Below are positions 4,129 to 62,829 of a DNA stretch of 64,000 nt, in pieces (within the stretch, counting starts at the first letter, position 1; every line of letters begins with the position of its first letter). The notes beneath the pieces were generated by a model. It did not search any database. It was not told the origin of the DNA and was given only the letters and a program-made list of their open reading frames with translations. This stretch comes from Candidatus Pacearchaeota archaeon (lineage in GTDB: Bacteria > Patescibacteriota > Minisyncoccia > Minisyncoccales > UBA5738), in contig DAOSDI010000002.1 in assembly GCA_035362275.1 (NCBI GenBank), positions 2,232 to 66,231 on the forward strand, read 5' to 3'. Both the position numbers and the translations under genes were made by a program.

Positions 4129-4167
4129 AGGGTCTAACCCCCGCGATTACACGGGGGATAGACCCTT
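4129..4167. repeat. GGGTCTAACCC-family hairpin (solo copy)
   Basis: AGGGTCTAACCCCCGCG-ATTACA-CGGGGGATAGACCCTT is an imperfect palindrome with the same GGGTCTAACCC / GATAGACCC arms as the elements at 5690 and 60934. Confidence 0.6.
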
Positions 4168-5689: not shown

Positions 5690-5802
5690 AAAATTAAAGG
5701 GGTCTATCCCTCGTTAATGCGAGGGTTGGTCCCTTTTAATTCTGCATTCGGATTCTCTGGGAAGGGTCTAACCCTCGCGAGGACGCGAGGGTTAGACCCT
5801 TA
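5690..5802 (+). repeat. Composite two-hairpin repeat element (GGGTCTAACCC family), full copy
   Basis: Hairpin 1 at 5696-5737, conserved linker TAATTCTGCATTCGGATTCTCTGG, and hairpin 2 GGGTCTAACCCTCGCGAGGACGCGAGGGTTAGACCC at 5761-5802. It is near-identical in architecture to 60934-61045 and, as a partial reverse copy, to 42855-42917. Confidence 0.8.
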
Positions 5803-5821: not shown

Positions 5822-6538
5822 TTACCGATTTTCGGCACGGGGCGTACCGCCGGCAAGCGCCGATGTCTGCCAGCCCAAGTCCGGCCGGCGGAACATTGTT
5901 TTTTTGGAGAGATTGTCGCCGGCCGGCCATTTGGCCGGCGCCATCGCCGCATCGGCCAAGCGGCAGTTATCGTCAAACAAATAAAGCGCTTCGTTTTGAT
6001 TGCCCAAAGCTCCTTTGTAGGTTTTATCGGCGGCAACTTGCGGCACGGAATCATCATCGGTGCGCTCCAATAAATACAACCCTTGCGGCGGCAAAGTTTC
6101 ATCGCCGGTGAAAACGATTTTGATCTTCCGGTTTTTGTTTTGCAATTGCCATCCGGCAAGACCAACCTCTTGGCCGGAAATATTTTTCAACTCAATCCAT
6201 TCATCGCTGTAATTGGCTACCGTGCCCATCCAGGCAACTTCGCTGATGATCGCCGATTTTTGCGGCACGGCCGGCGCGGCGGCAAAATCGCACCAGACTA
6301 CCGGCGCCGTTTTTCCGGTTTTGGCCGGCGTGTTTTCCGTCCCCGCGTCTTCCCGCTCCGGCAAAGCTTCCGTGCGCGGCTTGATTTCCGTCCATCCGTT
6401 CCCGTACCAGGCGCCACCCAAGTTCGCGCTCAAAAAACCGGCGCCGTGTTGGCGCCACAACAACGTTCCTCCGGCCAAAAGCCCAACGAACAGCGCGCCG
6501 ATCACCGCCGCTTGTTTTTTGGACAAATAAAATGGCAT
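5822..6538 (-). CDS. Membrane-anchored lamin-tail-domain (LTD) protein
   Basis: ISEVAWMG...SDEWIELKNISGQEVGLAGWQL...LPPQGLYLLERT is LTD-like. I moved the start to the ATG at 6538 (MPFYLSKKQAAVIGALFVGLL, a TM anchor) because the longer ORF-track start lies inside the repeat element at 6594-6754. Confidence 0.65.
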   Translation of the reverse strand: MPFYLSKKQAAVIGALFVGLLAGGTLLWRQHGAGFLSANLGGAWYGNGWTEIKPRTEALPEREDAGTENTPAKTGKTAPVVWCDFAAAPAVPQKSAIISEVAWMGTVANYSDEWIELKNISGQEVGLAGWQLQNKNRKIKIVFTGDETLPPQGLYLLERTDDDSVPQVAADKTYKGALGNQNEALYLFDDNCRLADAAMAPAKWPAGDNLSKKTMFRRPDLGWQTSALAGGTPRAENR

Positions 6539-6593
6539 ATTAAAACGCAAATATTCGCGCGGCTGGCCTGCTTCCGGAGAGCAGATTCTACAA

Positions 6594-6754
6594 GGGTCTA
6601 TTGCCGAATTGGCTTTGGCTGCAATTTCCATCTTTCGGCTGCGCCAAATTCGTCAATCGTCGGCATACTTTAAGCCAAGTATGCCTCCTCTTTCCTCATT
6701 TGACTCGCGCAAAATCTGAAAATTTCGCTTCAAAGCCAATTCGGCAACAGACCC
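6594..6754 (-). repeat. 161-nt long-hairpin element (copy B), candidate MITE or structured RNA
   Basis: 24-bp terminal inverted repeats GGGTCTATTGCCGAATTGGCTTTG / CAAAGCCAATTCGGCAACAGACCC. The central core is shared with 13853-14014 in the opposite orientation. TACAA flanks both ends (6589-6593 and 6755-6759). Confidence 0.7.
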
Positions 6755-7449
6755 TACAAGTCAGCGGCCTTTTTGATCTTGGCAACCGAAATTACCGCAA
6801 CTTGCCCCGATTCGGCCACTTGGGCGATCCCCAGAAAATTACCCTCAATGTCAAACACCGGCGCGCCCGCGGAAGCGGCGTCTTCATAAATGTTGGTCAC
6901 AATCTTATCGCCGGAAACCGCGCGCACCGTCCCTTCGTTGGCAAAAAATTCACCGGACGCCAACGCGCCGACCAAAAAAATCCGCTCTCCCAGCGGCAAA
7001 TCCTCCTGTTGATAAAATCCCGCGGTGAATAAATCCGCATCATTCAAACGCAAAATCGCCAAATTCGCATCCTTGTCGCGCTTCACCACCTCAAAGCCAA
7101 TCTTTTCGCCGGCGGAAAAAACTTCCGCCGCGGCGCCGGCCGGATAGGCGCTGTTTAACGTTACTGCCAGTCCATCAGAGGTGATCGCCGCGCCGGAAAC
7201 CGTGTGGCCGCCGCCGGTCTTGACGGCGATTGCCATATTTTTCACTTTGGCGATGGCATTCTTCAACGCCTTGTTCTCTTGAATCACCGTTTCGCTCTTT
7301 TCAATTTTTGGCGACGAAAGTGTTGACGACAAATAAAGAGGCGCCAGTTCCACGCATTGATAGAAGGAAATCAATCCCCCCGCGGCACCGCCCGCGACCA
7401 GCAATGCGGCAGTCGCGGCGATTTTCAGAATTTTTTTGAATTTTATCAT
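6754..7449 (-). CDS. Membrane-anchored trypsin-fold (S1C/HtrA-like) protein with a degenerate catalytic triad
   Basis: It aligns by eye to the HtrA paralog in this window, with His replaced by Ser (VTLNSAY vs LTNKHVV), Asp by Asn (ANLAILRL vs NDIAVVKI) and Ser by Ala (ASAGAP vs GNSGGP). The gene starts 5 nt after the clpB stop. Confidence 0.6.
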   Translation of the reverse strand: MIKFKKILKIAATAALLVAGGAAGGLISFYQCVELAPLYLSSTLSSPKIEKSETVIQENKALKNAIAKVKNMAIAVKTGGGHTVSGAAITSDGLAVTLNSAYPAGAAAEVFSAGEKIGFEVVKRDKDANLAILRLNDADLFTAGFYQQEDLPLGERIFLVGALASGEFFANEGTVRAVSGDKIVTNIYEDAASAGAPVFDIEGNFLGIAQVAESGQVAVISVAKIKKAADL

Positions 7450-7453
7450 TGGT

Positions 7454-10162
7454 TTAAACCGCCACTTTCGCCGGCCGGCGCAAAGTTTGGCGCGCGGGCG
7501 CGATCACAGCAATCTCGTCGTTTTTAACCTCCACCGAAACACGATCCCCTTCCCTGACTTCACCGGAAACGATTTTCAGCGCCAGCGCGTCCAACACCAG
7601 CTTCTGGATCACCCGGCGCAACGGCCGGGCGCCCAGATTGGCGTCAAATCCCCGGCGCGCCAGCAATTCTTTGGCCGCGTCGGCCACCGCCAAACGGATA
7701 TTCTTGGCGGCCAAACGCCGGTCCACTTTTTGCAGTTCCAGATCAACGATCTTTTTGATTTCCGCGGATCCCAAATAGTTGAAGATCACAATCTCGTCCA
7801 CGCGGTTCAAAAATTCGGGACGAAAAGACTCTTTCAGCACCGCCATTACTTTTTCCTGGATTTTTTCTTTGCCGTTATCAACTTCCGGCCGCGCGGAAAA
7901 TCCCAGCGCCGCTTCCTTGGCAATCACATCCGAGCCGATATTGGAAGTCATAATCAAAATCGCGTTCTTAAACGACGCCGTGCGGCCCTTGGCATCGGTC
8001 AAACGGCCGTCTTCCAGAATTTGCAACAAAATATTAAAGACTTCCGGATGGGCTTTTTCAATCTCGTCCAGCAATATCACCGAATAGGGGCGGCGGCGAA
8101 TCTTTTCCGTGAGCTGGCCGCCTTCTTCGTAACCGACATAGCCGGGCGGCGAACCCAAAATCCGCGATACGGTGTGCTTTTCCATATACTCGGACATATC
8201 CAGCCGCACCAGCGCGTTTTCGTCGTTAAACAGAAATCCGGCCAGCGCCTTGGCGGTTTCGGTCTTGCCCACGCCGGTGGGCCCCAAGAACATAAACGAA
8301 CCCAGCGGCCGGTTTTCTTCGGCGATGCCCGCGCGGGCGCGCCGGATCGCGTTGGCAATCGCGCCGATCGCCGCTTCCTGCCCGATCACCCGGCGTTTCA
8401 AAATCTCTTCCAAATTTTGCAGTTTGCGCGCCTCTTCCTCCATCAGCCGCGTCACCGGAATGCCGGTCCAGCGCGACACCACGTTGGCGACGTCTTCTTC
8501 GGTAATCTGCTCTTTGAGGATCGGGCGGCTCTTTTGAAACCGCGCCAATTTTTTTTCCGCGGACTTGAGCTCTTTGATCAGTTGGGGAATTTGACCGTAT
8601 TTCAATTCGGCCACTCGTTGAAGATTCGCTTGCGCCTCTTCTTTCTCCACCTCAAAACGGCTCGCTTCAAGTTCTTTTTTCAGATTCTTGATTTTGCCGA
8701 TCGTTTCTTTTTCGGAGCGCCATTTGGCCTCAACTTCCTGCAATTTTTCGCCCAAGTCGGCCATTTGCCGTTCAATGGCTTTGCGGCGGAGAATGATTTC
8801 CTGGCCACGGTCTTTTTTGATCGCTTCGTATTCCACCTGCAAATGCTGAAGCTCTTTGCGCAATTTTTCCACTTCCGCCGGCTCGGATTCAATGTCCAGC
8901 CGCAGGGCGCTCATCGCTTCGTCCATCAAGTCCACCGCCTTGTCCGGCAGGAACCGGTCGGGAATATAGCGCGACGCCAATTCCACGCACGCGGCCAATC
9001 CCCGCTCGTCAATTTTGACGCCGTGATGCATTTCATATTTTTCTTTCAGTCCCAGCAGGATCATTTTGGCATCTTCCATTGAAGGCTCGGCCACAAACAC
9101 CGGCTGGAAACGCCGTTCCAGCGCCGGATCCTTTTCAATGTATTTTTGGTATTCTTTCAATGTGGTGGCGCCGATAGCTTTCATTTCGCCCCGTGCCAGC
9201 GCCGGCTTAAGCAAATTGGACGCGTCAATCGTGCCGTCGGCGGCGCCGGCGCCCACCAACGTGTGCAATTCGTCAATAAAAAAGATGTACCGGCCGGCGG
9301 CGCGCTCCACCTCGCGTAGCAACGCTTTGATGCGGTCCTCAAACTCGCCGCGATATTTTGTACCGGCGATCAGCGCACCCAGATCAAGAGATATAATTTC
9401 TTTGTCGCGCAGGCTTTCGGGCGCATTTCCCGACGCAATGCGCTGAACCAAACCTTCCACGATCGCGGTTTTACCCACGCCCGCTTCGCCGATCAACACC
9501 GGATTGTTCTTGGTGCGGCGGCTTAAAACCTGCATCAGCCGGCGAATTTCGTTTTCCCGGCCGATCACCGGATCCAATTTCCCTTGTCGGGCCATCGTGG
9601 TCAAATTGCGAGTGTATTTTTCAATCACTTGATATTTGGATTCCGGTTCCGGATCGGTCACGCGCTGGCCGCCGCGGATCTTGGCCAATTCTTTCAGCAC
9701 GGTTTCATAATCAAGCGCCCCAATCTCGGGCGCGGCAAACCCGCCGTCCGCGCGGATGAATTCCACTTTGTCCAGCACTTCCCGCGCCTTGGTGGCGGTG
9801 CCCGCCAACGCCAAAAACAGATGTTCCACCGAAATGAACTCGTCGCCGAACTTGGACGCTTCTTCCCGCGCCCGCTCCAGCACTTTGGCCATATCCTGCG
9901 TCAAATAGAACTGGCCGAAAGCCTGCGGCGCGGCGATCACCGGCAGTCGGGAAAGCGCCCCCATTATCCGCTTGCGCAAATTCTGAACGTCAACGCCCAG
10001 ACGTTCCAGTAAATTCAAAATCAGGCTCTTTTCCTGAGACAAAAGCGCCGCCAGCAAGTGCAGGGCGTCCACCTGTTGCTGGCCCTTTTCCCGCCCCAGA
10101 TCTTGCGCGTAGAGAATCGCTTCCTGCGCCTTATGAGTAAAGTTTGGTGGTTGGTTGATCAT
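7454..10162 (-). CDS. clpB: ATP-dependent chaperone/disaggregase ClpB
   Basis: Clp N domain, two AAA+ modules ([14 protein letters not shown] and [14 protein letters not shown]) and a long coiled-coil middle domain. The ORF-track start at 10180 is TTG, so I use the ATG at 10162 ([15 protein letters not shown]). Confidence 0.95.
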
Positions 10163-10207
10163 AATAAATTTAAAATTCAAAAATCAAAAATCAAAATTAA
10201 GGAAAAA

Positions 10208-10236
10208 ATTATATACCCTGAATTACAAAATAGCAA
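10208..10236 (-). promoter_or_regulatory. Sigma-70-like promoter candidate for clpB
   Basis: The minus strand reads TTGCTA (10236-10231), a 17-nt spacer, then TATAAT (10213-10208). It lies 45 nt upstream of the clpB ATG and 10 bp downstream of the 49-bp palindrome. Confidence 0.4.
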
Positions 10237-10332
10237 TATTGATATTGTAGCGGTATTTGATACCGCTAAAATTTAGCGGTATCAAATACCGCTACGATCC
10301 TAAAAATATTTATTTTGTAATTCAGGATATAT
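10211..10332. repeat. Nested palindromic cassette containing a 49-bp perfect double-hairpin (10247-10295)
   Basis: Inner sequence GTAGCGGTATTTGATACCGCTAAAATTTAGCGGTATCAAATACCGCTAC is a perfect palindrome made of two TAGCGGTAT-N3-ATACCGCTA hairpins. The outer 22-nt inverted repeats ATATACCCTGAATTACAAAATA / TATTTTGTAATTCAGGATATAT match 21/22. Confidence 0.85.
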
Positions 10333-10370: not shown

Positions 10371-11651
10371 TTATCTTTCGCCCAGCGTCGCTTCCAATTC
10401 AATTTCGCCGCCGGCGCGCCGGACTTTCAGCTTTACCTTATCACCCGGATTATATTTTGCAATAACCCGCGCCAAGGAATTTTTTTGGTCCAGTTTTTGG
10501 CCGCCGATTTCCAGAATAATGTCCCCGTCCTTCAACCCGGCGGTTTGCGCGGGAGAACCGGCCATCACAGCGGTGCCGGATTCGCCGGCAGCAATCCACG
10601 CGCCGCGATCCGCCGGCAGATTATTTTCTTTTTGGAGGCGCGCGTCAATCATCGTGTAATAAACACCCAAGTAAGGATAGACGATCTTTCCCGAGGTTTT
10701 AGCCTGCGCCAATCCGCGCTTCGCCAAATTGATCGGAATCACAAATCCCACGTTTTGCGCGCCGCTGGCAATCGCGGTGTTAATGCCGATCACCTCGCCT
10801 TTCAAATTTAATAACGGCCCGCCGGAATTTCCCTCGTTGATGGCCGCATCGGTTTGGATCAAATCCTCCAAAACTTCGTCCTCGCCCGCGCCATAGGCAG
10901 TGATTGACCGTTGCATCCCCGAAATCACACCCACCGACACCGTATTGTCAAATTCTCCCAAGGCGTTGCCGATGGCAATCACGCTTTGGCCGATCTGTAA
11001 ATTGTCGGAATCTCCCAAAGCCACCGCGGGAAACCGCCGCCCGCCGCCGTCGGAGATCTTCACCACCGCAATGTCGTTGACCGGATCGGCCGCCGTCACT
11101 TTGGCCGCATAGCGCTCGCCATCGGACATCACCACGGTATATTGCGCCTGATTATCGCTCACCACGTGCTTGTTGGTTAAAATGGTGCCGTCTTCATCCA
11201 CGATGAATCCCGTGCCGGCGCCGATCTGCCGTTCCTCCGTGCCCCGCTGGCGCAATTGCGGCATCTGGAAGTCCCAGAAATCAAAAGGGTCGGTCCCGCG
11301 CGCATAATATCTTTCATAAACCGGCATATCTTTGGTGATGATGATGGACACCACCGCCGGAGAATAATCCTTGACCGCCTTGACGACCGCCTCTTCCTGT
11401 GAAGTTTGCGGCACATATTCAACCGGCATGTCCGCAGACGGCGTCTCAACGATTTGCGGCGCGAATTTTATCGCCGGCAAGTCAAACCGCTCGGCCAAAG
11501 AATCAAAATCTTGCGAAAACGCCAGCGCTCCCAAGGCAAATCCCGCGATCAGCACCAACATCGCCGGCCAAATGTTTTTTTTGCGATCCTTGCCCATTCC
11601 CAAAAAATTGCTTTTTGACTCCTCTTTTGAGGTGAGATCATACATTGACAT
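10371..11651 (-). CDS. htrA: HtrA/DegP-family serine protease with a C-terminal PDZ domain
   Basis: GTGFIVDEDGTILTNKHVV (His), NDIAVVKI (Asp), GNSGGPLLNLKGEVIGINTAI (Ser), a PDZ-like tail and an N-terminal TM anchor. The ORF-track start at 11684 is TTG inside the repeat, so I use the ATG at 11651 (MSMYDL). Confidence 0.9.
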   Translation of the reverse strand: MSMYDLTSKEESKSNFLGMGKDRKKNIWPAMLVLIAGFALGALAFSQDFDSLAERFDLPAIKFAPQIVETPSADMPVEYVPQTSQEEAVVKAVKDYSPAVVSIIITKDMPVYERYYARGTDPFDFWDFQMPQLRQRGTEERQIGAGTGFIVDEDGTILTNKHVVSDNQAQYTVVMSDGERYAAKVTAADPVNDIAVVKISDGGGRRFPAVALGDSDNLQIGQSVIAIGNALGEFDNTVSVGVISGMQRSITAYGAGEDEVLEDLIQTDAAINEGNSGGPLLNLKGEVIGINTAIASGAQNVGFVIPINLAKRGLAQAKTSGKIVYPYLGVYYTMIDARLQKENNLPADRGAWIAAGESGTAVMAGSPAQTAGLKDGDIILEIGGQKLDQKNSLARVIAKYNPGDKVKLKVRRAGGEIELEATLGER

Positions 11652-11665
11652 AGTATTAAATTGCT

Positions 11666-11790
11666 CTGAATTACAAGACAACAAATATTGGTATCGTAGC
11701 GGTATTTGATACCGCTAAAATTTAGCGGTATCAAATACCGCTACTTCCATACCGCTACTTCCCCGGCAATATTTATTTCGTAATTCAAAG
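11666..11790. repeat. Second copy of the palindromic cassette with the identical 49-bp double-hairpin (11696-11744)
   Basis: The 49-nt inner palindrome is identical base for base to 10247-10295. An extra half-site ATACCGCTAC sits at 11749-11758. The outer arms CTGAATTACAAG / CGTAATTCAAAG are related to those of the first copy. Confidence 0.85.
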
Positions 11791-12894: not shown

Positions 12895-13809
12895 TCAATT
12901 TGCCGCAAAGATCGCCAGACCGGCGGCAATCAGCAGAATCGCGGCAATTTTTTGCACCAAGTCCGCCGGAGAAAGCCGCGCGCCGAAAATTTCCGGCCAG
13001 CGGCGCGCCAAAAACAGGGAAAAGATAAAAATCAATCCGTATTGCACACCGGCCATGGCATTGATCGCCGGCACGCTCGCCTGCGGTGCCAGCGACACCG
13101 CAAAACTTTGCAATAAAAACGCGCTGGCGCCCAGCGCCTGCCCCAAGAAAAACAAACCGCCGGGCTTCCCTTTTGCGCGCTGGCCGGCACGCCTAAAAGA
13201 AAACACCGTCCGGCGCACCGATTTTGACGCCAAAAAAGTGATCGCCGCGGCAACGGAACCGAACGCCATCAACAGAAATCCGTTCAAAAAGGGCAACTGC
13301 AAATAAACCAGCTTTGCCGCCACGGTATTGGCGGCAAAAAATAGCGGCGCCGCCAGAACAAACAAAATCGCTTCTTTTTTAATTGAAATTCCGCGCGCCA
13401 TTATCATCCAGCCGCCCAGTATCAGCAAAAAAAATCCCGCCATTTCCTTTTGGTCCAAAACCGCCGCGCCGCCGGAAACCGCGGCCGTCAGAAAAAACGC
13501 GCCGATCGGCGTCAGACTGCCGACCACGGGCACCGCGCGGGCGGCTTCCATCCGCTTGAGCGCCGAAAAATAGAAAAAATTGCCGTAAATTTGCGCCGCG
13601 CCGGCCAAAAACGCCCACCCAAAAACCGGCGGCGCGGGCTTGGTCCAAAATCCGAACGGCAAAAGCAGGAGTGCTGCCGAACTCAAAATTCCCACATAAA
13701 AAGCGTATATTCGCGGATCACCGACTTTTCCGGAAAGCAAGAATTTGTCAATCAGCGCCATCGCCGCAAACAAAGAAAAAGCGGCCAGCGCCACGAAAAT
13801 CCACACCAT
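12895..13809 (-). CDS. EamA/DMT-superfamily transporter-like polytopic membrane protein
   Basis: About 10 predicted TM helices in two halves. The N-terminus has an EamA-like pattern (FAAMALIDKFLL...YAFYVGILSS). Confidence 0.55.
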   Translation of the reverse strand: MVWIFVALAAFSLFAAMALIDKFLLSGKVGDPRIYAFYVGILSSAALLLLPFGFWTKPAPPVFGWAFLAGAAQIYGNFFYFSALKRMEAARAVPVVGSLTPIGAFFLTAAVSGGAAVLDQKEMAGFFLLILGGWMIMARGISIKKEAILFVLAAPLFFAANTVAAKLVYLQLPFLNGFLLMAFGSVAAAITFLASKSVRRTVFSFRRAGQRAKGKPGGLFFLGQALGASAFLLQSFAVSLAPQASVPAINAMAGVQYGLIFIFSLFLARRWPEIFGARLSPADLVQKIAAILLIAAGLAIFAAN

Positions 13810-13852
13810 GTTTCAAATTTAAAATTTAAAAATCAAAATGAAAAATGACAAT

Positions 13853-14014
13853 GAGATGGTTTCAAAACCCTATTCGTTACGAAATCGTTTTATTCCGAGC
13901 GAGCCGAATGAAGAACGAGGAGGCATACTTGAAGCTAAGGTCTGCCGACGAGTGATGAATTCGGCGTAGCCGGAATAAAACGATTGCAGTAGGATAGGGT
14001 TTTGAAACCATCTC
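13853..14014 (+). repeat. 162-nt long-hairpin element (copy A), candidate structured RNA
   Basis: 21-bp perfect outer stem GAGATGGTTTCAAAACCCTAT / ATAGGGTTTTGAAACCATCTC and a 15-bp second stem AATCGTTTTATTCCG / CGGAATAAAACGATT. The central core GCGAGCCGAATGAAGAACGAGGAGGCATACTTG...TGCCGACGAGTGATGAATTCGGCGTAGCCG is shared with the reverse complement of 6594-6754. Confidence 0.7.
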
Positions 14015-14091
14015 CATGTAAAATTAAAAATTATTAAATCAAAATTACGTCAAGAATTTTACCTTAATTTTACATTTTGATTTTTACATTT

Positions 14092-15486: not shown

Positions 15487-15509
15487 TTACAGGGGTTCAA
15501 CCCCTGTAA
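15487..15509. repeat. Solo copy of the CAGGGGTTSAACCCCTG palindrome family
   Basis: TTACAGGGGTTCAACCCCTGTAA lies in an intergenic region. The same palindrome occurs as dimers inside nrdG (21640-21688) and tsaD (53988-54039). Confidence 0.8.
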
Positions 15510-15550: not shown

Positions 15551-15589
15551 AATTAAAAAGAGAGAGTATGGCTAACCTTTGCCATACTC
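15551..15589 (-). terminator. Rho-independent terminator overlapping the stop codon of the 126-aa gene
   Basis: The minus strand reads GAGTATGGC-AAAGGTTA-GCCATACTC followed by TCTCTTTTTAATTT. Confidence 0.55.
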
Positions 15590-15952
15590 TTTGAAAAACA
15601 TCGTCTGATTCGACCCCAACTTACACACGACGACGCGATAGACGTCGACAAAATGAAACCTAAGAAGGAAGCTCCCCCCGGGAGCTTCCTTCTCGCGGCT
15701 GGTCTCCACCTCGGTGGTGGTGTACAAGGCGACATAATAGTCGCCCATTATGGTCTCGTTCTCGAGATGCCAATCTGGCATCTCGGCACTTAGTTCAGAA
15801 GCTATCTGATGCTTCTGAATCTCAATGCTTCTTTCCGTAGGCTCTTCTATGAAAGAGCCCTCTTTGCTACTCGCTACGGCTGGCGTAATTGCCAGCGTCA
15901 TTGCCAGAATTACACTGGCGACCACCACTATGATGGCCAGATTCAACTTCAT
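15572..15952 (-). CDS. Hypothetical small secreted/anchored protein
   Basis: N-terminal hydrophobic signal/anchor MKLNLAIIVVVASVILAMTLAITPAVA. I recognise no other motif. Confidence 0.45.
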   Translation of the reverse strand: MKLNLAIIVVVASVILAMTLAITPAVASSKEGSFIEEPTERSIEIQKHQIASELSAEMPDWHLENETIMGDYYVALYTTTEVETSREKEAPGGSFLLRFHFVDVYRVVVCKLGSNQTMFFKEYGKG

Positions 15953-17834: not shown

Positions 17835-18169
17835 ATTACAATATGCCGCTTCCAAGTGTCAATAAACTTCACCGAGGCAAAGCCCCGAGGCATTCTGGCG
17901 AGTAAATAAATAAAAACAGAGGCCAAACCTCTACGAAATTCGCATTTGAAAAAGAAAAAAGAATCAGGCGGTGCACAATTGCATATCACCATAATGATTA
18001 CGGTGCAATTTGTACAATTTGTACAAGCCTGATTCCCACACGCTGGAGATGCTTCCCCAGCCTCATTTTCCACTACGTCGCAGTCGCATGGCGGAATATC
18101 TATGTCCGCCATCCCGAGCCCCATTAATCCAATCACAAGGATTAATGAGACGATTATTCCTTTTTTCAT
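17783..18169 (-). CDS. Hypothetical Cys-rich small protein with a signal peptide; the C-terminal third reads through a repeat element
   Basis: MKKGIIVSLILVIGLMGLGMA then PPCDCDVV...ACGNQACTNCTNCTVIIMVICNC. Residues YLLARMPRGFASV are the translation of the repeat at 17870-17917, so the true 3' end is doubtful. Confidence 0.3.
   Translation of the reverse strand: MKKGIIVSLILVIGLMGLGMADIDIPPCDCDVVENEAGEASPACGNQACTNCTNCTVIIMVICNCAPPDSFFFFKCEFRRGLASVFIYLLARMPRGFASVKFIDTWKRHIVICQKGLKYIKITKTIFS
17870..17917 (+). repeat. CCCCGRGGYATTCTGGCRR-TAAATAAA family repeat (solo unit)
   Basis: CACCGAGGCAAAGCCCCGAGGCATTCTGGCGAGTAAATAAATAAAAAC. Related copies lie at 19686-19748 (-), 34872-34916 (-), 43575-43672 (+) and 49174-49371 (+). 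Confidence 0.7.
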
Positions 18170-18224: not shown

Positions 18225-19685
18225 TTAAAATTTAATAAGCTCTTCTTTTTCTCGTTTCCTGATTTTGTGCGCGGCCGCCGCCAAAACGGCGTAGGCAAGC
18301 GCCAGCCAGAAAAAGCCGATTTCAAATTCCATTTTGGCGCCGGGCAAACCGGCAAAGAAATCATTCACCGCCAGCAAATAGGACAGCGCCAGCCAGATCG
18401 GAAAAAATAAAATCCATCCCAGCACCGGGCTGATCGCCCCGCAAATCGCCAGCACAAATCCATAAATCGTGATAAACGACACCAGCGGCTCCACCAGAAC
18501 ATTGGCAATCAGCCCGTAAGACGAAACATAGCCGAAATTATAAACTACCAGCGGCAGGGTAAAAATCTGCGCCGCCAGCGCCACCGATAACGCTTGGCGC
18601 GCGAATTTCGGGCGGACAAATCCGATTTTCTTTTCAATCGGCCGCGCAAAAAACACCATTCCCAGCACCGCCAAAAACGACAATTGAAACCCGATATCAA
18701 AACGCAAGATAAGCGGATTTTGCCACACCATCGCGGTAGCGGCGATGGCGATAATCCGCAAAGTGTCGCCGGGGCGGCCGATAATTTTGGCAAACATCGC
18801 CAAACTACCCATCACCGCGGCGCGCACCGCCGACGCGGGCAGGCCGATCATCGCCACGAACAGCCACACAAAAACAATTGTCGCCCAAAGGGCCTTTTGC
18901 CGCCACCATCCCAGCGCAATCAAAAACGGCACGATTACCTGCGCCATAATTGCCACGTGGGCGCCGGAAACCGCCGACAAGTGGCGCAGTCCGGAAATGT
19001 TCAGTTTTTCTTTCAATGCTTGCCCCAATCCGCTTTGATCGCCCAGTAAAATCGCGGTCAACAGCGAATTTTGCGGCGCCGGCAGGCTCTCTCCCGCCCC
19101 CCGCTTAAGCTGATGTTTCATCCACAGCAAACCGGCGTAGACCGGATTGCCGTTGCTCTCCGACGCCAACTCAATCTCGGGCCATCGCGCCATCGCGTAA
19201 ACCCCGTCTTTGGCCAGATAATTTTTATAATCAAAATCCGAAAAATTTTGCGGCGCTTCCAGCCGGGCGACAAATCGGATTTTATCGCCGTAAACATACT
19301 CCGGATAACGGCGCGCCAACACCATAATGTTGCCTTCAATTCCGTCAGGGCGCAAAATAATTTGCTGGCTTGAATCTTTCAAAACCGGATCGCGGACAAC
19401 CGTTCCGACAACCTCAACCGTTTGGCCGTTTAGTTTTGTCAAGTCATTGTCAACCGTTTTTTGCCAGGCCGCATCAAACCGCCAAAAACCAAAGATGAAT
19501 CCAAATAATAAAATTCCGGCCAGCGCGATTTTATGCCGGCGCGCGGCAATGCCGCTGCCAAACAAAAAAACGGCGCCCGCCGCCAAAAGCCAAAACAAAA
19601 AACGCGAAATTGACACCATTGACGCCGCCCCCACCCCGGCCATTGTTGCCAAACACCCGTATAAAAACACCTGCGGATAAGGCAT
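18225..19685 (-). CDS. comEC: ComEC/Rec2-family DNA uptake channel (DUF4131 plus Competence domain, no beta-lactamase-like domain)
   Basis: Polytopic membrane protein with LTAILLGDQSGLGQALKEKLNISGLRHLSAVSGAHVAIM, the ComEC signature region. Confidence 0.85.
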   Translation of the reverse strand: MPYPQVFLYGCLATMAGVGAASMVSISRFLFWLLAAGAVFLFGSGIAARRHKIALAGILLFGFIFGFWRFDAAWQKTVDNDLTKLNGQTVEVVGTVVRDPVLKDSSQQIILRPDGIEGNIMVLARRYPEYVYGDKIRFVARLEAPQNFSDFDYKNYLAKDGVYAMARWPEIELASESNGNPVYAGLLWMKHQLKRGAGESLPAPQNSLLTAILLGDQSGLGQALKEKLNISGLRHLSAVSGAHVAIMAQVIVPFLIALGWWRQKALWATIVFVWLFVAMIGLPASAVRAAVMGSLAMFAKIIGRPGDTLRIIAIAATAMVWQNPLILRFDIGFQLSFLAVLGMVFFARPIEKKIGFVRPKFARQALSVALAAQIFTLPLVVYNFGYVSSYGLIANVLVEPLVSFITIYGFVLAICGAISPVLGWILFFPIWLALSYLLAVNDFFAGLPGAKMEFEIGFFWLALAYAVLAAAAHKIRKREKEELIKF

Positions 19686-19748
19686 TTATTTACTCATCCG
19701 CCAGAATACCCCGGGGCTTTGCCCCGGCGATGTTTGGCAGGGGAATAA
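19686..19748 (-). repeat. CCCCGRGGYATTCTGGCRR-TAAATAAA family repeat abutting the comEC start codon
   Basis: The minus strand reads CCTGCCAAACATCGCCGGGGCAAAGCCCCGGGGTATTCTGGCGGATGAGTAAATAA, immediately followed by the comEC ATG. Confidence 0.7.
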
Positions 19749-21220: not shown

Positions 21221-21237
21221 ATCATCATATAACCGCT

Positions 21238-21260
21238 AAAAGGGTCCGACCCTTTTAATT
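21238..21260 (-). terminator. Short hairpin (minimal GGGTC..GACCC family unit), possible nrdG terminator
   Basis: AAAAGGGT-CCG-ACCCTTTT followed by AATT, matching the CCCTTTTAATT end of the composite repeat family. It lies about 80 nt downstream of the nrdG stop. Confidence 0.35.
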
Positions 21261-21338: not shown

Positions 21339-22103
21339 TTAAAAGTCGCGAACGCGGACAAACGGCACATAGGGTTTGATCTTGGCCAGCGCCGCAGTGA
21401 AAAATTCGTCGTCAAAGGGTTTTAATTTTTCAAATTCGGGATCAATGTTGCGCCCGGGTTTGAAATTCTGCAAAAAATATTTGGGAGACCGCCCGGGAAT
21501 ATCCTGCCCGATCCACTTGGCCATCCGGCCGAGATCGTCGGGCGTATGAACCCCGGGCGCAACCGTAGTTCTGAATTCAAAATCAATCCCCCCGTTTTTC
21601 AAAATCTTTAGGCTTTTCTCAACATCATCCACTCTTATCGACAGGGGTCCAACCCCTGTCAAATCTGCAGGGGTCCAACCCCTGTCAGCCCCGGCAAAAA
21701 GCGTCGCGTATCTTTCTTTGGGCAGTTTGATGTCCATGGCCACATAGTCAATCAATTTTTTATCAATCAGTTCTTTTATCATTTGAGGATTTGATCCGTT
21801 GGAATCCAGCTTGATCAAAAATCCCAAATCCTTTATTTTTCGGCAAAATTGGGGCAAGTCCGGATGCAATGTCGGCTCTCCCCCGCAAATGACCACCCCT
21901 TCCAGCAATCCTTGTTTTTCTTTCAAAAATTCCAAAACCTCCGTTTCCGGAATTTGGGGCTGTCGGGCAATCAACTCCGGCAGAACCAACTCCTTGGAAT
22001 AACACCACGGACACCGGAAATTGCACCCGGCCAAAAACACCGTGGCCGCCACATGCCCCGGATAATCAATCAACGTTGTTTTTTGCAGTCCGCAAATCTT
22101 CAT
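21339..22103 (-). CDS. nrdG: Anaerobic ribonucleoside-triphosphate reductase activating protein (radical SAM)
   Basis: MKICGLQKTTLIDYPGHVAATVFLAGCNFRCPWCYS carries the CX3CX2C cluster motif, in an operon context with nrdD. The ORF-track start at 22139 is TTG, so I use the ATG at 22103. Confidence 0.85.
   Translation of the reverse strand: MKICGLQKTTLIDYPGHVAATVFLAGCNFRCPWCYSKELVLPELIARQPQIPETEVLEFLKEKQGLLEGVVICGGEPTLHPDLPQFCRKIKDLGFLIKLDSNGSNPQMIKELIDKKLIDYVAMDIKLPKERYATLFAGADRGWTPADLTGVGPLSIRVDDVEKSLKILKNGGIDFEFRTTVAPGVHTPDDLGRMAKWIGQDIPGRSPKYFLQNFKPGRNIDPEFEKLKPFDDEFFTAALAKIKPYVPFVRVRDF
21640..21688. repeat. Dimer of the CAGGGGTYSRACCCCTG palindrome inserted in frame in nrdG
   Basis: GACAGGGGTCCAACCCCTGTC (21640-21660) and CTGCAGGGGTCCAACCCCTGTCAG (21665-21688), 26 nt apart. 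On the minus strand it is translated as DRGWTPADLTGVGPLS. Confidence 0.85.
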
Positions 22104-22224
22104 AATGGTTTGTTCCAAATAATTTCTCGCGATTGTCAATTATAACTCCGCCCGCCGATTTAACCAAGAACCATTTTTGCGACCGCAAAATTTGTCAGAT
22201 AATGCGCCAATAGGAACGCAAAGC

Positions 22225-25645: not shown

Positions 25646-25772
25646 ATCCCCCTTAAAAAATTCTAAACCCTAATTTCTAAACCCTAAACAAATCTAAAAT
25701 TCAAATTTAAAAAAATAATTTTTTTGTTTTGATTTTTAAATTCTGAATTTATTTAGAATTTGAAATTTAGTT

Positions 25773-42854: not shown

Positions 42855-42917
42855 AAAGGTCTGACCCTCGCGTCCTCGCGAGGGTCAGACCTTTCCCAGA
42901 GAATCCGAATTTCAGCC
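42855..42917 (-). repeat. Partial reverse copy of the composite GGGTCTAACCC-family element (linker plus hairpin 2)
   Basis: The minus strand reads GGCTGAAATTCGGATTCTCTGGGAAAGGTCTGACCCTCGCGAGGACGCGAGGGTCAGACCTTT. Confidence 0.75.
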
Positions 42918-47623: not shown

Positions 47624-47707
47624 GCCGAAGTGGTGAAATTGGCATACACGCAGCACTCAAAATGCTGTGAGGGCAACCTCGTGTGGGTTCAACTCCCACC
47701 TTCGGCA
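47624..47707 (+). tRNA. tRNA-Leu (anticodon CAA), class II with a long variable arm
   Basis: Acceptor stem GCCGAAG/CTTCGGC, anticodon stem CAGCA/TGCTG with loop CTCAAAA, variable arm GAGG-GCAA-CCTC, T-arm GTGGG-TTCAACT-CCCAC, discriminator A. No encoded CCA. Confidence 0.9.
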
Positions 47708-53554: not shown

Positions 53555-54652
53555 TCAAATACTTAAATTTGGTTTAGAAATTAAATCTTGCGGAGTAACA
53601 ACCGCTTGATCGCGGCGAAAAGCAAAATACCCCGCCACTCCGGCCATGGCCGCGTTATCCACCGACAGATCAACCGCCGGCGACAAAAATCTGATTTCCA
53701 ATTCATCGGCCGCTTTTTGCATCGCCTGGCGCAACACCAGATTCGCGCTCACCCCCCCGCCGATAATGATTGACCTGGCGGCAAATTCTTTTGCCGCGCG
53801 GGCGGTTTTGGAAACCAAAACTTCCGCAATCGCCTGCTGGATTTCATAACTCATCGCTTGCAAATATTCCGGCATTTTCTTGGTTTTTTCGGTTTGCTTT
53901 TGGTGAAAATACAAAATTGCGGTTTTCAACCCCGAAAAACTGAAATTATAATTCTTTTGCCCCATCATCGGCCGCGGAAGCTTAACCGTCAGGGGTTCAA
54001 CCCCTGTAAGTTTAACAGGGGTTGAACCCCTGTAAGTTTGGGCGAGTTTGGCGATTTCCGGGCCGCCCGGATAGCCCAGCCCCAAAATCCGGGCCGCTTT
54101 GTCAAAGCACTCGCCCGCCGCATCGTCAACGGTCTGACCCAGCAGTTTATAGTCGCCGATCCCCGTTGCTAAAAACAACAGCGTGTGCCCGCCCGAAACC
54201 ACCAGGCAAATTGCCGGCAGGTAATTTTTCGCGAATTCATCCTCACCAATTCCCAAGGTGAGTAAATTCGCCAAAAAATGCGCTTCCAGATGATTGACGC
54301 CCGCCAGTGGCAGGTTATATTTTTTTGCCAATTTTTGGGCAAAATTTATGCCCGTCCACAAGCAAGGGTCCAATCCCGGACCCTTGGTCACGCCAATGAA
54401 TTTGATTTTGGCAACATCGATTTTTTTTATCGCCTGCTCAAAAACCACCGGCAGATTTTTTTGATGCTCCCGCTTGGCCAAGAACGGATAAACTCCGCCA
54501 TAGCCGGCGTGCAATTCCGTTTGCGAAGAAACGACATTTGATAGCGCCTCGATTTTTTTCAACCTGCCCTTGCCGTCCTCCTTTGCGCGCAAAACGCTCA
54601 CCGAGGTGTCGTCGCAGGAAGTCTCAACGGCAAGAAAATATGTTTCATTCAT
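53555..54652 (-). CDS. tsaD: tRNA N6-adenosine threonylcarbamoyltransferase TsaD
   Basis: LAVETSCDDTSVSVL, GVNHLEAHF, FSFSGLKTA and IIGGGVSANLVLRQ. I use the ATG at 54652 (MNETYFLAVETS). Confidence 0.9.
   Translation of the reverse strand: MNETYFLAVETSCDDTSVSVLRAKEDGKGRLKKIEALSNVVSSQTELHAGYGGVYPFLAKREHQKNLPVVFEQAIKKIDVAKIKFIGVTKGPGLDPCLWTGINFAQKLAKKYNLPLAGVNHLEAHFLANLLTLGIGEDEFAKNYLPAICLVVSGGHTLLFLATGIGDYKLLGQTVDDAAGECFDKAARILGLGYPGGPEIAKLAQTYRGSTPVKLTGVEPLTVKLPRPMMGQKNYNFSFSGLKTAILYFHQKQTEKTKKMPEYLQAMSYEIQQAIAEVLVSKTARAAKEFAARSIIIGGGVSANLVLRQAMQKAADELEIRFLSPAVDLSVDNAAMAGVAGYFAFRRDQAVVTPQDLISKPNLSI
53988..54039. repeat. Dimer of the CAGGGGTTSAACCCCTG palindrome inserted in frame in tsaD
   Basis: GTCAGGGGTTCAACCCCTGTAAGTTT followed by AACAGGGGTTGAACCCCTGTAAGTTT (26-nt period, loop flipped TTCAA/TTGAA). 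On the minus strand it is translated as YRGSTPVKLTGVEPLTVK. Confidence 0.85.
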
Positions 54653-54787
54653 AAATGTCAAAATCAAAATGACAAATAACAAATAAAATCCAGAATCCAA
54701 ATGTCAAATATCAAAACGGGATACGGGAATTCGATTTGATCTTTGAGCTTTGGATTTGATTTGAAATTTGAGCTTTGACATTTTGAT

Positions 54788-60727: not shown

Positions 60728-60933
60728 TACATTACCTCTTATTTATTTTAAGAACTATTTCTTATTTCTTACCGTTGTTTCGGCGCTGTTCCCTGCCCGC
60801 TCCGAGCGGGTGTTGCCTTTCCTTGGCCGGCGGACGCTCTCCGGCTAAAACTCTCTTTTTTCGCTCCATACTTTTTAATATAATTTTATTGAAAAAATGT
60901 AAAGAGATAAAAGGGTAACTACTCGCTGGTCCC

Positions 60934-61045
60934 AAAATTAAAAGGGTCTAACCCTCGCATTAACGAGGGATAGACCCTTTTAATTTTGAATTCGGATTCT
61001 CTGGAAGGGTCTAACCCTTTTGATTACAAAAGGGTTAGACCCTTA
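60934..61045 (+). repeat. Composite two-hairpin repeat element (GGGTCTAACCC family), full copy
   Basis: AAAATTAAAAGGGTCTAACCCTCGCATTAACGAGGGATAGACCCTTTTAATTTTGAATTCGGATTCTCTGGAAGGGTCTAACCCTTTTGATTACAAAAGGGTTAGACCCTTAA. Hairpin 1 is the reverse complement of hairpin 1 at 5696-5737. Confidence 0.8.
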
Positions 61046-61065: not shown

Positions 61066-62736
61066 CTATTCCTTTTTGGCCACAAATTTGCACGGGCGGC
61101 GGGCGATGATCACGCTCACTTCGGGCTTGTCAACAAATTCGCGCACCGCAGCGATGAACTCTTCGGATTGGCCCTGGTCAATGATTTTCATATTTTCCGG
61201 CTTGACCCCGCAGGCCAGCACCATATTTTCAATCGGAATCGGATGAACCGCGCCGACAGAATCCGGATGCGGCTGATGGCCGGTCATCGCGGTGATGTCA
61301 TTATTCATAATGATGATCAAAGGGTTGGAGCCGTTATAAACCGCGTTGAGCAATCCCTCAATTCCCGAATGGAAAAATGTGGCATCGCCGATGAAGGCAA
61401 TCACTTTTTGGTCCGCGGCGGCTTTTTTAATCCCGTGAGCGATGCCGATTGACGACCCCATGCAAAACATATAATCATAGAGCTCGTGCGGCGGCAGGGC
61501 GCCGATCATATAACAGCCGATATCGCCGCCAAAAACCACCTTGCTGGCATCCACCGCCTTTTTCACCGCGGCAAACACCAGCCAATACGGGCATCCCGGG
61601 CACAATTGCGGCGGTCGCGCCGGCAGTTCAAATTTGGGCGCGAATTTGGGCAGAGTGTATTTTTTGCCCGTGAATTTGGCAACCATTTCGGCCGCGATCT
61701 CCGGCTTCATCTCGCCGATCTGCGTGCGCCAATCAACCCCGCGGATCTCCAATTTGCAATTGGCATCCTTGGCCAGCATCTGGATCCTCTTTTCCAAATA
61801 GGGTTCCATTTCTTCCAGCACCAAAACCTTTTTCAATCCCTTGATGAAATCACGGATCTTTTTTTCCGGCAGAGGATGGAACATCCCCAATTTCAGCACC
61901 GGCAAAACAACGCCCAATTCTTCCATCGCCTCCTGCGCGTGCAAATAAGCGATACCGGAAGTGATTATTCCCAACGGCTGATTTTTACCTTTAATAACGC
62001 CTTCAACGCGGTTTAATTTGCTTTTTTCAAAATACTGCGCCAATTTTTCTTCGCGGGCCAGCATTTCTTTTTTCATTCCGTTCAGGCGCGGCATCATGGT
62101 CACATATTTGCGCTTGTCTTTGATAAATTCGCCTTTCAGGTTGACATTGCGGTCGGGAGCCAATTCGCCCAAAGCCACCAAGGCCCGCTGGTGCGCGGTG
62201 CGCGTGGTGATGCGCACGATTACCGGCGTCCCGAATTTTTCCGAAATGGCAAACGCCTCAATCGTGAAATCTTTGCACTCCTGCGCGTCGCTTGGCTCCA
62301 GCATCGGCAGATGCCCCAACACCGAAAACGGCCGGGTGTTTTCCTCACTTTGCGCCGAACTGTGGCACCCCGGGTCATCCGCCACGAAAATCACCATCGG
62401 GGCGCGCGTGCCGGTATAGGCCAGCGGTAAGAGCGGTTCCAGAGCAACATTTAAGCCGAAATTTTTCATCGCCACCAAGGTTTTTAATCCCGAAAAATTC
62501 GCGCCGATGGCCGCTTCCATCGCGGTTTTTTCATTGGTGGAAAATTCAAACAAAAACTTGGGATCGCCCTTCAACTCTTTTTGCAAGGCGAAAAAATTGT
62601 TGCCGATCTCCGAAGCGGGCGTTCCCGGATAGGTGGAAACGAATTGCACCCCGGATTCCAGCGCCCCGCGAATAATCGCCTCGTTCCCCAAAAACATCGC
62701 TCTCTTCCCCTTTGAATCTTCAAGTAATTTATTCAT
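61066..62736 (-). CDS. iorA: Indolepyruvate:ferredoxin oxidoreductase alpha subunit (TPP-binding), lacking a C-terminal ferredoxin domain
   Basis: FVSTYPGTPASEI, GDIGCYMIG and IAFIGDATFFHSG (TPP motif). The protein ends ...ARRPCKFVAKKE with no CxxCxxCxxxC cluster motifs. Confidence 0.75.
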   Translation of the reverse strand: MNKLLEDSKGKRAMFLGNEAIIRGALESGVQFVSTYPGTPASEIGNNFFALQKELKGDPKFLFEFSTNEKTAMEAAIGANFSGLKTLVAMKNFGLNVALEPLLPLAYTGTRAPMVIFVADDPGCHSSAQSEENTRPFSVLGHLPMLEPSDAQECKDFTIEAFAISEKFGTPVIVRITTRTAHQRALVALGELAPDRNVNLKGEFIKDKRKYVTMMPRLNGMKKEMLAREEKLAQYFEKSKLNRVEGVIKGKNQPLGIITSGIAYLHAQEAMEELGVVLPVLKLGMFHPLPEKKIRDFIKGLKKVLVLEEMEPYLEKRIQMLAKDANCKLEIRGVDWRTQIGEMKPEIAAEMVAKFTGKKYTLPKFAPKFELPARPPQLCPGCPYWLVFAAVKKAVDASKVVFGGDIGCYMIGALPPHELYDYMFCMGSSIGIAHGIKKAAADQKVIAFIGDATFFHSGIEGLLNAVYNGSNPLIIIMNNDITAMTGHQPHPDSVGAVHPIPIENMVLACGVKPENMKIIDQGQSEEFIAAVREFVDKPEVSVIIARRPCKFVAKKE

Positions 62737-62789
62737 ATTGAAAAATTTAAAGTTTAAATATCAAAAATCAAAATGACAATGTAAAATTT

Positions 62790-62829
62790 AAAATGACAGT
62801 TCAATTTTAACATTTTGAACTGCCATTTT
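62790..62829 (-). terminator. Terminator hairpin after hicA
   Basis: The minus strand reads AAAATGGCAGTTCAA-AATGTTAAAA-TTGAACTGTCATTTT followed by AAATTTT. The stem is 15 bp with one mismatch. Confidence 0.5.

Follow-up and report, generated by a model that had tools for sequence, protein, structure and literature searches.

A hairpin-forming palindrome doublet in frame within tsaD of a Patescibacteria genome is probably a REP-like mobile element

We analyzed a stretch of 64,000 nucleotides from a Patescibacteria genome (GenBank assembly GCA_035362275.1, contig DAOSDI010000002.1, positions 2,232 to 66,231; this whole stretch is called the window), with the focus on a 45-nt segment at 53989-54033 on the minus strand which lies in frame inside tsaD, the gene of an essential enzyme of tRNA modification. 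The segment is made of two short palindromes which together form a hairpin. It is likely to be a mobile doublet similar to the repetitive extragenic palindromic (REP) elements and the REP doublets forming hairpins (REPINs), dispersed across several Patescibacteria lineages and tolerated here in a permissive loop of the host protein. The same core, designated family (a), occurs in unrelated genes and in intergenic DNA and is absent from most orthologs. The peptide which it encodes is probably a tolerated passenger and not a functional module.

An earlier note on this DNA had placed a palindrome dimer at 53988-54039, in frame ahead of the LPRPM motif of TsaD, and its place and sequence proved exact; the letters of this span, which includes the flanks of the doublet, are GTCAGGGGTTCAACCCCTGTAAGTTT AACAGGGGTTGAACCCCTGTAAGTTT. 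The repeat had been read as two units of 26 nt. The repeat is there, but its natural unit is a doublet of 19 + 7 + 19 = 45 nt, that is 15 codons, as given by the gain of 15 codons in nrdG described below. The two 19-nt copies have the form ACAGGGGTT[C/G]AACCCCTGT and stand 7 nt apart, core 1 at 53989-54007 (TCAGGGGTTCAACCCCTGT), the spacer at 54008-54014 and core 2 at 54015-54033 (ACAGGGGTTGAACCCCTGT); the consensus core of family (a) is ACAGGGGT-NNN-ACCCCTGT. The central base is C in one unit and G in the other, so that the units are mutual reverse complements, and the flipped loop noticed before is real. On the minus strand the doublet is translated as YRGSTPVKLTGVEPL, in the context ...AQTYRGSTPVKLTGVEPLTVK-LPRPM...FSFSGLKTA. 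The pair folds into a single hairpin with an 18-bp stem and a 7-nt loop, for which the RNA fold gave -39.6 kcal/mol (z = -7.95 against shuffles) and the DNA fold a z of about -7 to -8. A search of the 64-kb window for CAGGGGTTSAACCCCTG with at most two mismatches returned five matches against 0.00 in 100 shuffles, namely the tsaD pair, a pair in nrdG (21642-21658 and 21668-21684) and a solo intergenic copy (15490-15506). None of the palindromes had a match in Rfam, where the sole match of the window was a tRNA gene (47624-47707).

The second in-frame doublet of family (a), also claimed before and found as claimed, lies at 21641-21685 on the minus strand, with cores at 21641-21659 and 21667-21685, and is translated as DRGWTPADLTGVGPL. 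Its host is nrdG (21339-22139, minus strand), encoding the anaerobic ribonucleotide reductase activase (NCBIfam TIGR02495, 197 bits). Both loops read CCA in the same orientation, so inverted units are not universal. Most of the NrdG homologs (n = 120) are 236 aa long and without the segment; at the DNA level the filled sites (the window and L019) exceed the empty site of L134 by exactly 15 codons, which is one doublet of 19 + 7 + 19 nt (loci are cited by L numbers and proteins by P numbers). The sequence GACAG, matching the left edge of the element, is already present in this empty site, as one observation, and this one comparison of empty and filled sites gave no clear target-site duplication. 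The same site of nrdG is filled by other palindrome families in P0124/L135, P0127, P0133 and P0137.

A second insertion site, after DIKAP, was noted in the NrdG proteins P0177, P0183 and P0192, where AT-rich, repeat-like peptides such as QFSISNFQ are found, and similar peptides of the KFKIxNxKFKI type are present in many distant TsaD linkers.

The solo copy of family (a) (TTACAGGGGTTCAACCCCTGTAA, 15487-15509), which the motif search recovered where it had been reported, is intergenic and lies between two minus-strand genes. An orthologous copy with other loop bases is present in L003, L043, L045 and L134. The solo copy received a terminator-like call on the plus strand only, and the minus-strand gene upstream of it has its own terminator-like hairpin at 15590-15563. 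The open reading frame (ORF) at 15572-15952 (minus strand, 126 aa) has no family match and contains perfect hairpins at 15663-15693, 15763-15785 and 15794-15819; it may be no real gene, or another hairpin-rich region.

The distribution of family (a) was surveyed by scanning 185,579 species genomes (596 Gb) with the 19-mer ACAGGGGTYSAACCCCTGT. The scan returned 45 loci, and since about 13 chance loci are expected under uniform base composition, singletons outside Patescibacteria (Streptomyces, Methanomethylophilaceae etc.) were discounted. The identical 19-mer is present in distant Patescibacteria lineages, and several metagenome-assembled genomes (MAGs) of Patescibacteria are multi-copy for the family, with flanks which are typically AATTTAC...GTAAATT. 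Copies are often paired at a spacing of 26 nt, in intergenic DNA (L028, L033) as well as in genes. In-frame copies were found in tsaD, nrdG (L019), uvrC (L027), leuS (L020, labelled from sequence motifs only) and atpA (L031), and the order of the units is opposite in the uvrC pair; two of the three loci of family (a) in the window lie within genes. The copies, which the earlier note had proposed to tabulate, are both coding and non-coding, and the genic ones use only two of the three frames, RG[S/W]TP and TGV[E/Q/G]PL. In the second of these frames the canonical GTAA flank would read a TAA stop, and every such genic copy has an altered flank.

Multi-copy palindromes with the core CAGGGGTTSAACCCCTG were also noted in MAGs of Ignavibacteria (L004, L007-L009, L012, L014, L024, L032, L035, L036) and Azotimanducaceae (L013, L029, L038), flanked by GGGACAGGGG...CCCCTGTCCC or TGACAGGGG...CCCCTGTCA. 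With these different flanks they were treated as separate families, which have the look of REP-like repeats belonging to other phyla.

The host gene tsaD is a 381-aa ORF at 53555-54700 on the minus strand, identified by the NCBIfam equivalog TIGR03723 (329 bits, cutoff 296). The AlphaFold model of the protein has a mean predicted local distance difference test (pLDDT) score of 86 and a predicted template modelling score of 0.83, and Foldseek matched it with solved TsaD-TsaB structures (E = 2e-28, target-normalised TM-score 0.88). In this model, which had been suggested as a check, the insert is a low-confidence coil following helix 212-221 and ahead of the conserved LPRPM, with pLDDT of about 62 across residues 221-240 and below 50 at 227-231. 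The clade-invariant residues are all kept in the TsaD of the window, which is also the reference sequence of the alignment, and the reading frames of tsaD and nrdG are intact despite the doublets. The true start of tsaD is probably Met17 at 54652, not the listed TTG at 54700, and that of nrdG is probably Met13 at 22103, not the listed TTG at 22139; ortholog lengths and the low pLDDT of the N-terminus place the listed starts too far upstream. A 9-bp hairpin CAAGGGTCCAATCCCGGACCCTTG with a stem like that of family (c), one of the linker families listed below, was seen at 54363-54386 on the invariant TKGPGLDPC motif of TsaD, and may be a chance codon choice.

The extra length of the TsaD linker, claimed before by comparison with E. 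coli and B. subtilis, was borne out by alignment. Thermotoga maritima TsaD (6n9a_D) has a 9-residue gap opposite the insert, and close orthologs from the candidate phyla radiation (CPR) which are free of the palindrome have the linker 5-8 residues shorter. The net gain in tsaD is only 5-8 residues and not 15, and hence part of an older linker has been replaced. The palindrome-free linker of L128 contains no remnant of family (a), and the Arg codon at this place is CGC.

When 120 TsaD homologs are aligned, the segment from EIAKxA to LPRPM is hypervariable. Judged by peptide motif, inserts are present there in 36 of the 56 closest orthologs and belong to at least five unrelated families: (a) CAGGGGT..., (b) AGTGGAGGT-ttg-ACTTCCACT, (c) AAAAGGGTC-NN-ACCCTTTT, (d) GGCAAAAAATTGGC... 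and (e) GCGCGGGTC-N-GACCCGCGC. Every ortholog linker read at the DNA level is palindromic. The insert had earlier been regarded as a rare case of selfish DNA which contributes a peptide in frame; the in-frame peptide stands, but the case is not a one-off, as the linker is a hot spot for several families. This recurrent turnover of many families in one loop is the more interesting part, more than the doublet itself, and because relatives carry other families in the same loop, small repeats have repeatedly added short peptides to housekeeping proteins of these small genomes.

On a neighbour-joining tree of TsaD with the linker removed the families are interleaved, and there P0001, the TsaD of the window with family (a), has P0003 with family (b) as its sister. 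L129 and L001 have 99% protein identity and 91% identity at four-fold sites outside the linker, with the differences concentrated in the linker. The family (b) allele of L126 retains the terminal 3' arm of a family (a) unit (GAACCCCTGTTGGTTAAG), suggesting that one element was inserted into the other or replaced it at the hairpin, and the junction between (b) and (a) is the hairpin centre. Families (c) and (e) are dispersed beyond tsaD, and family (c) is only intergenic in the window; family (b) was not found outside tsaD among the loci examined. The wider survey of hairpins consisted mostly of distant TsaDs (40-55% identity) among the matches listed, and in it a perfect stem of at least 7 bp was present in 24 of 59 Patescibacteria tsaD linkers. 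Among the 92 tsaD genes in the matches listed (L001-L136), hairpins whose stems reach 9 bp or more are concentrated at the linker, residues 224-237 (21 matches), with smaller clusters near residues 40-44, 94, 147 and 334-341 in the numbering of the window protein, which are candidates for further insertion hot spots.

The palindromes of the type AAAGGGTC..ACCCTTT, which fill the tsaD linker in L127, L047 and P0013-P0019, are intergenic in the window (4129-4167, 5690-5744, 5762-5801, 21237-21257, 42855-42894, 60933-60987 and 61005-61044) and are mostly doublets with 18-bp stems. In L127, which has family (c) in tsaD, the genes for CofD and NTP_transferase at 6145-8597 are both broken into a pair of ORFs, with a Y2_Tnp gene close by; the splits could be frameshifts, insertions or sequencing errors.

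As to the mechanism, copies of family (a) would be made by a Y1/HUH tyrosine transposase similar to the REP-associated tyrosine transposases (RAYTs), which, by analogy with REP/REPIN and IS200/IS605 elements, would recognise the hairpin on single-stranded DNA. As the ORFs cover about 87% of the window (a rough gene map) and genes are tightly packed, many insertions would land in genes. The survivors would be those which keep the frame (45 nt), avoid the TAA of the canonical flank and fall in a permissive surface loop, and other families may then tend to replace an established hairpin or to insert within it, giving a cassette-like turnover.

Genes which could provide such an enzyme were found next to the palindromes. 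In the Sungbacteria locus L006 a 231-aa protein matches Pfam Y1_Tnp with 27.4 bits (threshold 23), and its sole NCBIfam match is the REP-associated tyrosine transposase, below the family cutoff. This gene is abutted by ACAGGGGTTGAACCCCTGT at 23 nt ahead of its start codon and again at 2 nt past its stop codon, and the Y1_Tnp genes of L039 and L034 have the same two-sided layout with the core of family (a) or a close variant. One Sungbacteria copy of family (a) ends in GTAG. It was also observed that the RAYT-like gene of L006 holds, at 6795-6811, an in-frame copy of its own flanking palindrome (TTGVQPL).

The window has a RAYT-like Y1 (HUH) transposase gene of its own at 3-719 on the minus strand (239 aa, stop codon just past the window edge), with a match to Pfam PF01797 of 27.6 bits against a gathering score of 23. 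The protein is 30% identical to the L006 protein flanked by family (a), and its His90, His92 and Tyr150 are invariant among 35 homologs. A cluster of GTAG-type, AT-rich palindromes (TAGCGATAT..ATATCGCTA) lies directly upstream of the gene at 737-841, and in the full-length locus L136 (5880-6752) the same family overlaps the stop codon of the RAYT-like gene, so that the palindrome GTAGCGATAT...ATATCGCTA flanks the gene on both sides (GTAGCGATATCAAATATCGCTA). This is a complete REP-plus-transposase arrangement at the window edge, of another palindrome family than (a). Several contigs and assemblies break about 220 nt past this gene, just after the repeat cluster. Arrangements of REP-like repeats with RAYT-like genes exist in Patescibacteria and in this genome.

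Several points weigh against a mobile doublet. The tsaD locus is no clean insertion, with its net gain of 5-8 residues against 15, and the evidence on the target site at the DNA level comes from a single empty nrdG site. The feet of family (a) read TTAC...GTAA and have no GTAG/CGTC tag as in REP. The match to the NCBIfam family REP_Tyr_transpos (NF047646) is only 23.5 bits for the window protein and 25.9 bits for the L006 protein, against a cutoff of 80. Against solved RAYT or IS200 structures the RAYT-like proteins gave nothing significant: the single window protein had no match among the sequences of solved structures, and a profile of 35 sequences had ISDra2 TnpA as its best one, across the HUH motif, at a marginal E = 0.13. 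The only RAYT-like gene of the 64-kb window is the one with the GTAGCGATAT palindrome, and none flanked by family (a) was found there; because the transposase of family (a) was not seen in the 64 kb of this genome, its transposition through a single-stranded hairpin is something that we infer. The family is also of low copy number, with three intergenic and a few diverged copies in about 246 kb of related loci (a count which leaves out the tsaD and nrdG pairs), and since copies are few its current activity is unproven. Lastly, the synonymous sites of the stems are invariant, as set out below, which could reflect selection on a functional hairpin and not turnover of an element.

Few copies in the lineage and no cognate transposase in the window are also what would be seen if the palindromes had spread or been replaced without a dedicated transposase, the RAYT-like genes being bystanders or targets. 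This could happen through template switching or slippage stimulated by the hairpin, through short-patch gene conversion between copies, or through homologous recombination which exchanges linker alleles among strains. The mobile GC clusters of yeast mitochondria are a comparable case. Alleles interleaved on the TsaD tree would be expected under recombination, the junction of L126 sits at the centre of the hairpin, and the transposase gene of L006 itself holds an inserted copy. We regard this reading as unlikely, because the core abuts three independent Y1_Tnp genes a few bases from their starts and stops, which is a hallmark of REP-RAYT systems, the identical 19-mer is found in distant Patescibacteria lineages, and the gain in nrdG is exactly one doublet.

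A second alternative is co-option of the hairpin, with selection now maintaining it: as an mRNA structure it might slow translation between the TsaD subdomains or set mRNA stability, as DNA it might bind a protein, or the encoded peptide might alter the surface of TsaD close to the motif which contacts the tRNA D-stem. The constraint was measured in eight family (a) tsaD orthologs, most pairs of which have 73-86% protein identity. None of the seven four-fold codon positions within the stems varies, whereas in the rest of the gene only 10 of 62 (16%) are invariant (P about 3e-6) and the mean pairwise four-fold identity is 57%. Loops and spacers vary among the orthologs (TCA, TGA, CCA, TGG). The mRNA hairpin is very stable, at the -39.6 kcal/mol given above, and the insert stands 15-20 residues ahead of FSFSGLKT; in T. 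maritima the equivalent motif residues Ser208, Gly211 and Lys213 contact the tRNA D-stem (PMC13276492). The text of that paper does not mention as tRNA contacts any of the six named residues of the linker region which were searched in it. Several copies are decaying, with hairpin-breaking changes in L129, L130 and L131, many close orthologs lack the palindrome or have an unrelated one at the same place, and the same element sits in unrelated proteins. Co-option is for these reasons improbable, and the frozen stems could come from selection on the hairpin or from its constant renewal through re-insertion or gene conversion.

A native TsaD linker specific to the lineage, shaped by ordinary protein-level selection and only incidentally palindromic, is a very improbable reading of the segment although the position varies in length across all TsaD proteins: the same 19-nt core in nrdG, uvrC, leuS, atpA and intergenic DNA already contradicts it, and so do the frozen synonymous sites of the stem and the perfect 18-bp hairpin with its z of -7.95. 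Least credible of all is an artefact of assembly or chimerism, since, although palindromes and repeats can mislead assemblers and several contigs do end just past the repeat cluster beside the RAYT-like gene, identical tsaD DNA is present in the MAG UBA6102 (L017), diverged doublets recur in tsaD of at least seven further assemblies (L001, L023, L040 and L129-L132; NCBI, ENA, JGI and Logan), made by different pipelines, and in nrdG, eight species-level variants have a family (a) doublet in tsaD, the reading frame is intact and the TsaD protein clusters have up to 37 member sequences.

The REP-like mobile doublet remains the reading that we prefer, and a broader proposal can be attached to it more tentatively. 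Co-resident REP-like families across Patescibacteria might use a few permissive loops of essential genes (TsaD residues about 94, 147, 224-237 and 334-341, and the two NrdG sites) as long-term landing sites where they replace each other like cassettes, with stems actively maintained at the DNA level. If this is true, hairpin elements would be a systematic source of lineage-specific insertions in CPR proteins, and the loops, placed in indispensable genes, would offer a polymorphic marker of element activity.

In the literature searched, neither REP/RAYT elements nor in-frame palindromes are described from Patescibacteria, which would accordingly be a new host phylum for REP-like elements and RAYT-like transposases. 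The data are also of value in showing how such elements persist inside the essential genes of compact genomes. The tsaD and nrdG loops form a natural experiment on the short insertions which a conserved enzyme tolerates, and the contrast of frozen stems with fast turnover of the linker can be used to separate selection on DNA or RNA structure from continual re-insertion. Inserts of this kind can distort alignments, ortholog lengths and phylogenies of CPR marker genes, and the repeat clusters appear to break assemblies.

Other repeats were recorded in the window. Identical 49-nt doublets GTAGCGGTATTTGATACCGCTAAAATTTAGCGGTATCAAATACCGCTAC at 10247-10295 and 11696-11744 bracket an htrA/DegP-like gene (10371-11684), and they belong in one family with the hairpins next to the RAYT-like gene. 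Inverted arms of 51 nt (82% complementary) at 17864-17914 and 19685-19735 bracket a comEC-like gene (18225-19685). AT-rich direct repeats of the type AAAATCAAAAATCAAAAT are present at 10155-10209, 13797-13851, 14003-14060, 25679-25755, 54653-54714 and 62732-62792; they lie repeatedly at the boundaries of genes, also around the annotated start of tsaD, and may be promoter-associated.

Among known systems, REP/REPIN elements are the closest. Like them, family (a) consists of short GC-rich palindromes dispersed in the genome, its copies are often doublets folding into one long hairpin, several palindrome families coexist in one genome, and Y1/HUH genes are flanked by the repeats, by family (a) in L006, L039 and L034 and by the GTAG type in the window. 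The GTAG tag of REP is carried by the other family of the window, GTAGCGATAT. Family (a) differs from REP in its 19-nt core, which is almost perfectly self-complementary, in its untagged feet, and in its low copy number with a large share inside genes, and the transposases of Patescibacteria stand far from the curated RAYTs, with scores under the NCBIfam cutoff.

The TTAC of the family (a) foot is also the target tetranucleotide of IS608, and a Y1/HUH-type transposase which would recognise a hairpin is shared with IS200/IS605 elements (IS608, ISDra2); the likeness in target site comes from the single empty nrdG site (GACAG). Unlike those elements, family (a) is non-coding and has no distinct left and right ends. 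The mobile GC clusters of yeast mitochondrial DNA are likewise short GC-rich palindromes of a compact genome and occur in frame in var1; to our knowledge their mechanism is not known, and they are organellar, with sequences unrelated to family (a). Miniature inverted-repeat transposable elements, which measure 70-300 bp and have inverted repeats at their ends and a duplicated target site, were considered and rejected, as the element is 45 nt long, without separate terminal repeats and with no clear duplication.

The Rickettsia palindromic elements (RPEs), with which the earlier note had drawn a parallel, are roughly 100-150 bp long; we know of no transposase for them and of no occurrence outside Rickettsia. 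The parallel holds in that a palindromic repeat adds a peptide in frame to housekeeping proteins of a reduced genome with the ORF preserved, and, as far as the TsaD model goes, at a loop compatible with the fold, the insert being predicted as coil. It does not hold for the closest kind of element, which is REP/REPIN: in size, host and, as far as is known, sequence, RPEs stand apart from a 19-nt unit and a 45-nt doublet hosted by Patescibacteria, and the likeness is one of outcome, not of family membership.

Intragenic REPs are known in several species; over half of them form dimers or groups with 20-30 encoded residues, and among the hosts are genes for excinuclease ABC and tRNA synthetases (Di Nocera et al. 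2013, PMC3733652, which also mentions the Rickettsia elements). The hosts found here are uvrC, leuS, tsaD, nrdG and atpA. The present repeats belong to another phylum and are untagged, the same codon position holds several unrelated families in close relatives, and the stems are frozen at synonymous sites. Intragenic REPs being already known from other phyla, the Patescibacteria doublet is a further case of that kind.

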